In this document: one piece after another, positions 1 through 13,632 of the stretch | Layout: every line of letters starts with the position of its first letter | Position numbering within the stretch: the first letter of the stretch is position 1 | Assembly (NCBI GenBank): GCA_043813875.1 | Contig: JBDRKP010000026.1 | Span: 1-14,839 of the forward strand | Source: an archaeon | GTDB lineage: Archaea; EX4484-52; B79-G9 | Direction: 5' to 3' | Length of the DNA: 14,839 bases | Translations under genes and position numbers: made by a program | Notes under the pieces: generated by a model | What the model saw: the letters and a program-made list of their open reading frames with translations, nothing else | The model's database searches: none | What the model was told of the DNA's origin: nothing

Positions 1-192
1 CACTAGCCTGCCGGAATCTTAGGGCTCGGATATAATGACTATTACCTCCTTTATTTTTTTACCTGCTCATTCCAAACCGGCATCCTTCATTTCACCTCCT
101 GTGCATATCAAGTCCATAATAAGATTCAGTTTTTCGCATGGGATATCTTGCCTGTGCATAACAATCTAATGACTACAGGAGAATATATCAAC

Positions 193-3837: not shown

Positions 3838-3944
3838 TGGTCCGGATGAGATTTGAACTCACGACCCCCACGTGCCTGATATATTCTGAAAAGAACAGAA
3901 TCTTATTATCAGCGTGGTGCTCTAACCAGCTGAGCCACCGGACC
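3838..3944 (-). tRNA. trnI: tRNA-Ile(GAU) with 33-nt intron at canonical position 37/38 (intron 3874-3906)
   Basis: Acceptor GGTCCGG/CCGGACC plus A discriminator, D arm GCTC/GAGC, anticodon stem CCACG/CGTGG with GAT at 3910-3908, T arm GTGAG-TTCAAAT-CTCAT. BHB motif: CTGA pairs with intronic TCAG, with 3-nt bulges TA^A and GC^A. CCA is not encoded. Confidence 0.97.
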
Positions 3945-4227: not shown

Positions 4228-4332
4228 TATAGTAAACGTCATAACTTTTTGGACTAATGACGTTTCCATATAGATTGATGTCTATCGGTTCATTGGTTAT
4301 ATTTGTCCAGCGAGTAACGACATCAACTATAG
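4228..4332. repeat. Bipartite hairpin element, family 1, 'empty' form (A arm + B arm)
   Basis: A: TATAG-T-AAACGTCAT...ATGACGTTT-CCATA (4228-4270). B: TATAG-A-TTGATGTC...GACATCAA-CTATA (4269-4331). Homologous to 8070-8153 and 8468-8530. Confidence 0.85.
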
Positions 4333-5974: not shown

Positions 5975-6079
5975 TATAGTCAAGGCACGAATTAATTGAG
6001 TAACGTGCCTTGCCATATACATCAAGGCATTTTGGTTTTTTGTTGAATTTTGTTCATTTATTTCATGCCTTGAGTATAG
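5975..6079. repeat. Bipartite hairpin element, family 2, 'empty' form
   Basis: A: TATAG-T-CAAGGCACG...CGTGCCTTG-CCATA (5975-6017). B: TATAC-A-TCAAGGCAT...ATGCCTTGA-GTATA (6016-6078). Homologous to 13411-13454 and 13570-13631. Confidence 0.85.
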
Positions 6080-8069: not shown

Positions 8070-8547
8070 TATAGTAAACGCCATAACTTTTTCATGGCAT
8101 TTGCGTGCCAAGCTTTCGAGACAAGCTCAAAATAGACGAATGGCGTTTCCATACATGTAAAAATAGAGATGCTATTTTTACTGTCCAGCGAATCTTTGAG
8201 ATTCGCCCGGATCATTAAAAATCGTTTTACGATTTTTATGATTTCGAAAATTCATGGAAATTTATTGGTATATTGGAATATTTCCAAGCTTTTTCATCGC
8301 CACTATATGCGATGAAAATTTGTTCCAAATTTTCAATTTTCGAAATCACTAAAAATCCAATTCATATAGTGGATTTTTGTGATGACAAAAATCGAGGCTC
8401 TCGATTTTTAGTCATTCGAAATGGGTGAGCATTTTGAAAATCCAGCGAATCTTTGAGATTCGCCAAGATAGATTGACGTCTGTTGGTTTATTGGTTATAT
8501 TTGTCCAGCTATTAACGACGTCAACTATAGTTATGCGAGCAACTATA
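8070..8547. repeat. Bipartite hairpin element, family 1, 'filled' form with internal hairpin chain
   Basis: A arm 8070-8153, about 315 bp chain of 8 hairpin units (8153-8469), B arm 8468-8530 and mini-hairpin TATAGTT...AACTATA (8526-8547). Exact 24-bp direct repeat at 8184-8207 and 8441-8464. Confidence 0.85.
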
Positions 8548-13410: not shown

Positions 13411-13632
13411 TATGGTCAAGGCACGAATAAATTGAGTATTTATGCCTTGTCATATCCGAAAAATTGCAATGCAATTTTTGGATTTCGAAAATTTATTCTA
13501 AATTTTCAATTTTAGAAATTCGAAATGGGTGTGCATTTCGAAAATCCAGCAAATTGTCAATTTGCTCGGATAGATGAAAGCAAGTTGATTTCTTGTTGAA
13601 ATGCGGTCATTTATTTCTTGCTTTCACTATAG
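13411..13632. repeat. Bipartite hairpin element, family 2, 'filled' form
   Basis: A: TATGG-T-CAAGGCA...TGCCTTG-TCATA (13411-13454). 116-bp insert TCCGA...TCGGA (13455-13570), homologous to the 8153-8469 chain. B: ATAG-A-TGAAAGCAA...TTGCTTTCA-CTATA (13570-13631). Confidence 0.85.

Follow-up and report, generated by a model that had tools for sequence, protein, structure and literature searches.

Background

HUH/Y1 transposition acts on elements with hairpin ends, leaves no target duplication and includes exact excision, and the end hairpins of IS200/IS605 elements have one handedness. PATEs, non-autonomous elements derived from IS200/IS605, likewise have hairpin ends, cause no target duplication, excise exactly and insert directionally by a short motif. 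Correia/NEMIS is a TA-duplicating MITE of the IS630/Tc1-mariner kind. The term PATE is used in PMC3119063 and PMC4810608. REP and BIME sequences as well as REPINs with their RAYT (Y1) are treated, for bacteria, in PMC3116915, PMC2817692 and PMC3333891, and PMC3733652 names GTAG/CGTC as a conserved tetranucleotide foot tag. Insertion sequences such as IS1397 and ISPpu9 specifically target REP/BIME, according to PMC1525189 and PMC12288879. According to PMC11602168, which also names MITEEc1_IS630, tiny-genome DPANN archaea are among the MITE-densest archaea.

The present study concerns hairpin cassettes of ~54–116 bp that are located at the midpoint of a MITE in an archaeal genome. REPIN/BIME and IS200/IS605-type elements appear to be their nearest analogues, which is meant as likeness, not as membership. 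Like REP, BIME and REPIN sequences, the units are short, imperfect, bulged extragenic palindromes of high copy number without coding function, consist of two hairpins in inverted arrangement and form tandem arrays of alternating orientation. Unlike these, they are archaeal and housed in another mobile element rather than directly intergenic, and the search for a single-copy Y1 gene with these hairpins at its flanks yielded none; nor did the hairpin feet of the folded and aligned units, which read AT/CC...GG/AT, show a GTAG/CGTC tag. With PATEs they share hairpin ends, lack of target duplication, exact excision and directional insertion beside a short motif; they differ by their mirror-image end hairpins, by the lack of TnpB matches in the genome (PF07282, 0 matches) and by the unrelated flanks of its Y1 gene. 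As with IS1397 and ISPpu9 at REP/BIME, a repeated palindrome is the precise and oriented landing site of a mobile element, but there the incomer is a full insertion sequence with its own transposase and here a small cassette.

A literature search covering DPANN MITEs, insertion sequences, repeats and hairpins of Nanohaloarchaeota, and archaeal palindrome-associated transposable elements retrieved general MITE censuses and bacterial REP/BIME/REPIN work and no description of this nested family, while the MITE sets in the supplements of PMC11602168, which lay outside the search, could contain these elements. New here are the junction cassette, its grammar and its turnover at orthologous sites.

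Results and discussion

Genomic context and elements of the window

The window, i.e. the whole stretch of DNA analysed, is the entire 14,839-bp contig C26 of a 1.64-Mb genome (G000; 90 contigs, 43.8% GC) and harbours, among others, genes for Nre, H+-pyrophosphatase and a DEAD-box helicase. The same repeats are carried by MAGs labelled 'Candidatus Nanohalarchaeota archaeon'. Four ~106-bp two-hairpin A-B copies were detected in the window, two of them empty and two filled at the A/B junction (Table 1), all following a common plan of hairpin A starting with TATAG, a central motif and hairpin B ending with CTATA. The strings and coordinates that the initial annotation had reported for both empty junctions are correct. 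The same holds for the filled family-2 copy, where 13450-13574 comprises TCATAT, 114 nt from CCGA to TCGG, and ATAGA, with a 7-nt inverted repeat at the ends, and for the proposed filling of the family-1 copy at the same point by extra DNA from about 8153 to 8469. The two inserts are homologous, as had been stated (8314-8346 versus 13487-13519, 91%; 8406-8450 versus 13510-13554, 89%).

Table 1 Features of the A-B elements in the window; module coordinates were counted by hand from sequence rulers and the dot-bracket fold
Feature	Position	Strand	Details	Basis
Empty family-1 A-B element	4228..4331	+	junction CCATATAG at 4266-4273	
Empty family-2 A-B element	5975..6078	+	junction CCATATAC at 6013-6020	
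A arm, filled family-1 element	8070..8153	+	loop holds 41-nt hairpin pair PQ, 8093-8133	
Junction insert, filled family-1 element	8154..8468	+	two units	ruler and folds
Unit 1 of family-1 insert	8154-8211			
Unit 2 of family-1 insert	8212-8468		Ma 8212-41, H2 8242-8345, H3 8415-40, Mb 8441-68	
PQ-like pair nested in unit 2	8253-8319		in H2	
Extra mirror hairpin pair nested in unit 2	8346-8414			
B arm, filled family-1 element	8469..8529	+		
A hairpin arm, filled family-2 host MITE	13411..13454	+	TA flank first, ...CATA last	sequence and fold
Ma, left hairpin of inserted unit	13455..13482	+	bulged base in 5' arm	fold
Core, two hairpins	13483..13544	+	H2 13483-18 (3' arm mutated in this copy), H3 13519-44	
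Mb, right hairpin of inserted unit	13545..13570	+	bulged base in 3' arm, mirror of Ma	fold
B hairpin arm, filled family-2 host MITE	13571..13631	+	TAG first, ...CTATA last including TA flank	

Genome-wide census of A-B elements

Searching the genome with nhmmer and a profile of the B arm, derived from the window's four copies, yielded 73 matches; the resemblance among the copies is a matter of homology, not of chance. The census comprises the 62 matches with E<0.05; among the 11 weaker ones left out are some decayed copies. The A-B loci were thus collected and classified, and the coexistence of empty and filled forms noted in the window generalises to the genome: 34 copies are empty (including five poorly parsed ones called empty by eye) and 28 filled at the A/B junction, these copies being related by descent and their numbers not counts of independent events. 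One additional filled copy was found by eye in tandem with an empty one, the TA being common to both. Every A-B copy is intergenic; a crude ORF count puts the coding share of the genome at roughly 89%. The host element is present in all eight genomes of the genus.

The host element as a MITE

The host A-B element is a mobile foldback MITE with TA duplication. It is small, non-coding and multi-copy, and measures ~104-106 bp in its empty form of two abutting hairpins. Its left end reads TATAG(T) and its right end CTA or GTA followed by TA in 61 of the 62 copies; in family 2, ~11 of 13 end positions match as an inverted repeat (by eye). Comparison of orthologous sites revealed at locus 3b a clean TA-element-TA in G007 versus a single TA in G004, the element concerned being a filled one, and orthologous empty sites of G006 and G005 show 2 nt (TG or CA) where G004, G007 and G001 have TA-element-TA. 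The comparison of G001 with G002 fits the same duplication rule, and at locus 3a the TA duplication is off by 1 nt.

The host thus resembles TA-duplicating IS630/Tc1-mariner MITEs (e.g., Correia/NEMIS) in being small, non-coding, intergenic and multi-copy, in its inverted ends starting with TA|TAG and in the TA duplication at orthologous empty sites, and it differs from them in that each host end is itself a hairpin, i.e. two foldbacks are abutted. Genes for IS630-type transposases were detected in three of the eight genus genomes. The ends of the G005 copy read TA|TAGCAA... and have ~5 nt in common with the host ends; for the copy in the present genome, on contig C62, no inverted ends were found. 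The latter gene (DDE_3; C62:11874-12987) is split across two ORFs by a frame shift. The last ~100 nt of C62 seem to recur in the first ~150 nt of the window (57-156), and the two contigs therefore probably abut.

Several further arrangements were observed around the host family. The MITE at L100/L104 sits between two genes which abut in G003, G005 and G000 (L113-L115), and apparently took the place of the upstream gene's final codons and stop. A 22-bp mini-palindrome bounded, like the host, by TATAG.../...CTATA spans 8526-8547 of the window, where it runs into the terminal TATA of the family-1 B arm. Strings like it border elements on contigs C6, C42 and C67, and the mini-palindrome may be a minimal member of the host family. 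On C14 (23650-26500), the A arm of one element is interrupted by a block with two long ORFs (440 and 226 aa) resembling an insertion sequence. The A loop of a filled element on C70 (6918-7662; L043) holds a ~570-nt cargo with a 123-aa ORF, which was considered as a mobiliser and dismissed, having neither a Pfam family (best E 0.15) nor a relative in 15 other genomes of the family.

Precision and specificity of the junctions

At every one of the 27 readable left junctions the break falls behind CATA; T comes next in 22 and C in five, and all five CATAC junctions carry one and the same unit type. On the right, the host sequence continues with TA at 27 of 28 junctions. Among the 34 empty copies, 27 have CATATA plus G, C or A at the junction, the remaining seven deviating at one or two bases. 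Insertion between CCATA and TAG with no duplication accordingly describes 27/27 left and 27/28 right junctions, and this description and that of an AT duplication differ only by a 2-nt ambiguity. The precise, nucleotide-exact filling of the same junction in both host families, as proposed for the window, was upheld. Two details of that proposal do not extend to all copies: the AT duplication appears as AT...AT at 22 of 27 left junctions, the remaining five reading CCATAC, and the terminal repeat TATCCGA/TCGGATA spans 7 nt in the 13.4-kb copy, with only ~ATCC/GGAT (2-5 nt) or no repeat elsewhere.

A profile of the unit gave 53 matches at E<=1. Forty-two of them, among which are all 25 with E<=0.001, are located within A-B elements and have the orientation of the host; a further seven are weak palindrome echoes on the opposite strand, and four lie outside A-B elements. 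Of these outside places three were viewed, representing a decayed Mb+B remnant, a different hairpin array and a weak match. Confinement of the insert to A/B junctions, implied by the idea of a site-specific landing pad, is therefore borne out by the bulk of the matches. The pad had been thought to be defined by structure; since both host families keep the same short junction motif, sequence recognition could suffice.

Architecture of the insert

The insert is modular, a stack of hairpin pairs and not one unit. By folding and alignment, the unit is a mirror-image pair of bulged hairpins, Ma...Mb, of ~54 bp, which may enclose a 62-bp core of two hairpins, and 13455-13570 represents one Ma-core-Mb unit. 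According to our parse, 34 complete units are distributed over 27 elements in stacks of one to three, and one more element is truncated. Ma faces A in 34 of 34 complete units, and the core resides between Ma and Mb in all 11 elements possessing one; in five other MAGs, nine of nine core loci, from both host families, have the same order and orientation. Under automatic and crude labelling, the 3' arm holds the extra base or bases of 29 out of 37 Mb-like hairpins and the 5' arm those of none; of 34 Ma-like hairpins, 11 are longer on the 5' arm and one on the 3' arm, the rest being equal. From these mirrored bulges it follows that the two ends of the unit are mirror images.

Ma-like mirror pairs also occur between H2 and H3 (8346-8414) and inside the loop of another hairpin (L034-L036), contexts into which homologous exchange cannot have placed them. 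Enlarged A loops were observed in 12 of 28 filled versus 5 of 34 empty copies, an association that shared descent could also cause.

Two further hairpin pairs occupy the loops of host arms. PQ, a separate pair of ~41-45 nt, resides in the A loop just 5' of GGAC/AGAC (window 8093-8133; L100, L104 and L069 in G004, G006 and G007); of two genomes compared at one orthologous element, one has it and the other lacks it, and a reversed copy was found in a B loop, next to the same motif on the opposite strand. This placement suggests a sequence- and orientation-specific target. RS, a pair of ~62 nt, occupies the T-rich B loop in G004 (L089, L100); the orthologous elements of G007 and G006 lack it. At C70:7538-7602 of the present genome, 7 nt of the core are left between Ma and Mb, which fits a deletion between the two 11-nt direct repeats of the core and indicates that imprecise loss also happens.

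Turnover of units relative to host arms

Units are lost or replaced independently of the host arms. Between the elements C26:8466 and C39:38633, 95 nt (window 8149-8243, i.e. CCATAC plus the first 89 nt of the insert) are 100% identical, the similarity of the B arms being 71%. A different stretch of 133 nt reaches 92% identity across the two families, in a pair of hosts with 70% similarity of the B arms. For 14 of the 28 filled copies, the nearest B arm is that of an empty copy.

Between close relatives, orthologous elements differ by precisely one unit or have the unit exchanged between unaltered arms. Comparison of orthologous loci in sister genomes, which the initial annotation had envisaged, revealed the same element empty in G004 and filled in G007 and G001. 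By parsimony, the empty state of G004 represents an exact loss, since G007 and the more distant G001 are filled (flanks 97% and 84% identical to G004, respectively). This loss is the only change with an inferable direction, no gain having been inferred against an outgroup. At locus 1, A and B arms are kept and the unit subtype differs between G004 and G007. At locus 2, G004 and G006 differ at four nested sites (the junction, the A loop and two in the B loop), and the element is young, as it is absent from G003, G005 and G000. Two other orthologous pairs are unchanged. Filled elements also transpose as a whole, as evident from C26:13410 and its counterpart on C68 (94% over 224 nt) and from locus 3b; the 28 filled copies do therefore not represent 28 independent events. 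For the 13.4-kb locus of the window, sister genomes offered no orthologous element for comparison, because their synteny differs. Four groundwater DNA runs containing parts of the window provided short contigs at a depth of ~2-5, with joints solely from paralogous copies; no RNA run with parts of the window is listed.

Folding and strand evidence

Both strands of the window elements fold far better than shuffled controls (z -2.9 to -7.7), with z-scores of -6.9 and -6.4 on the two strands. Fully compensatory changes preserve the stems. Watson-Crick pairs fill 238 of the 256 cells in A stems and 261 of the 272 in B stems, with several pair types per position. An asymmetry between G:T and A:C in the stems was not observed (8 versus 5 of 528 cells), which, together with the equal folding of both strands, argues against an RNA gene and marks neither DNA strand as the active, folding one. 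Rfam contained no family for the elements, and the sole window match at gathering score was a tRNA at 3838-3944 on the minus strand (107 nt, 57.8 bits), for which ARAGORN returned none; the 107-nt length suggests that this tRNA holds an intron. Based on crude ORF calls, co-oriented downstream genes are in mild excess (39 versus 22).

Origin of the inserts

Our preferred reading, in which our confidence is evenly balanced, regards 13455-13570 as a nested, non-coding and non-autonomous cassette at the midpoint of a MITE, and its units as entering and leaving seamlessly and directionally. The host, with its two abutting hairpins, the ends TATAG.../...CTATA and the conserved central motif CCATA|TAG, would present the joint between the two hairpin feet as landing site. 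Units would be inserted and excised by a hairpin-dependent reaction supplied in trans, without target duplication and with exact excision, and possibly by a chemistry akin to the single-strand 'peel-and-paste' of HUH/Y1 enzymes (IS200/IS605, REP-RAYT). Each inserted unit would make new junctions of the same kind, which would explain the stacking and the Russian-doll nesting.

Among known chemistries, HUH/Y1 single-strand transposition would by analogy be the nearest, and the mirror-image relation of Ma and Mb speaks against an IS200/IS605 reading. Y1 (PF01797) was found in three of the eight genus genomes (MAGs 68-92% complete), in the present one as a single gene fragment at a contig end, a candidate for the enzyme. 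The Y1 flanks in this genome, G005 and G003 carry unrelated GC-rich hairpins, and no Y1 gene is linked to the units. IS110-type genes (PF01548, PF02371) were considered and rejected as candidates, being found only in G002, G003 and G005 and having unrelated flanks without Ma- or Mb-like ends. Repeat units of ~40 nt ending in ...CACCCAAAA-like sequences were observed 3' of the Nre gene in G006 (L018) and beside an IS110-type gene in G005 (L071). A more far-reaching proposal, which we consider doubtful, is that of a DPANN seamless insertion system new to science, in which a recombinase would read hairpin-foot joints and there insert or remove cassettes in a single orientation and without target duplication. 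Each cassette inserted would restore a joint of this kind and so permit hierarchical nesting, and at least four cassette classes (Ma-Mb, core, PQ, RS) would each have a preferred site in another class.

The main rival is deletion combined with ectopic conversion, which would demand no dedicated machinery: an ancestral long composite A-Ma-core-Mb-B would have undergone hairpin-promoted deletions at short AT repeats at the hairpin feet, and ectopic gene conversion via the A and B arms. Such a history, which we deem possible but rather unlikely, explains the fixed order, the orientation and the restriction to the junction for free; it accords with the precise loss in G004 as the sole change of inferable direction, with the 7-nt core remnant on C70, which looks as if derived from deletion between the 11-nt direct repeats of the core, with the unit swap between unchanged arms at locus 1, which resembles a conversion tract, and with the copying of filled elements as a whole. 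It is, however, difficult to reconcile with identical units beside A arms that differ right up to CCATA (C26:8466 versus C39:38633), leaving ~5 nt of homology on that side, with stacks of dissimilar units such as the three in C39:38633, and with Ma-like and PQ pairs in unrelated contexts (between H2 and H3, in hairpin loops and reversed in a B loop); moreover, deletion at a 2-nt repeat would have to have been exact in 34 of 34 empty copies. The reading of the initial annotation amounts to an ordinary inverted-repeat (DDE-transposase) MITE duplicating AT at the junction, and with CATAT at 22 of 27 left junctions, AT or A|TA at 27 of 28 right junctions, Ma and Mb mirroring each other like terminal inverted repeats, IS630-type transposase genes in genome and genus, and a host that itself moves in this manner with TA duplication, that model has a basis. 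Yet the insert is a stack of hairpin units rather than a single inverted-repeat transposon, and the AT rule fails at five of 27 left junctions, which read CATAC without an AT repeat and all carry one unit type. A palindromic AT and mirror ends further provide no reason for a single orientation (0 of 34 units are reversed), the terminal identity between unit ends amounts to just 2-7 nt and varies among copies, and a TA-duplication reading would require an empty site 2 nt shorter than any seen; we regard the model as improbable.

That A-B elements and their inserts form a family of genes for structured RNA, or of regulatory 3'/5' elements, in which hairpins serve as variable expansions, and not mobile DNA, appears very improbable. 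Orthologous sites either have or lack the entire element, with TA duplication, copies occur in every orientation relative to neighbouring genes, neither strand folds better than the other, A:C and G:U-type pairs are equally rare, and no Rfam family matches, even though strong stem covariation, the intergenic position of all copies in a ~89% coding genome and the mild excess of co-oriented downstream genes (39 versus 22) could be taken in favour of such a role.

Conclusions

One MITE family serves as a scaffold on which smaller hairpin cassettes of several classes are added, removed and exchanged at exact positions within ~3-6% flank divergence, which bears on how compact genomes tolerate and turn over repeats. 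If a dedicated enzyme is indeed involved, it would constitute a compact, scarless and orientation-specific inserter guided by hairpin joints, which would matter to transposon biology and might serve as a tool; if there is no such enzyme, the elements would offer a clean example from nature in which to study hairpin-driven deletion and gene conversion. In both cases, they are useful fast-evolving strain markers for groundwater and sediment metagenomes.
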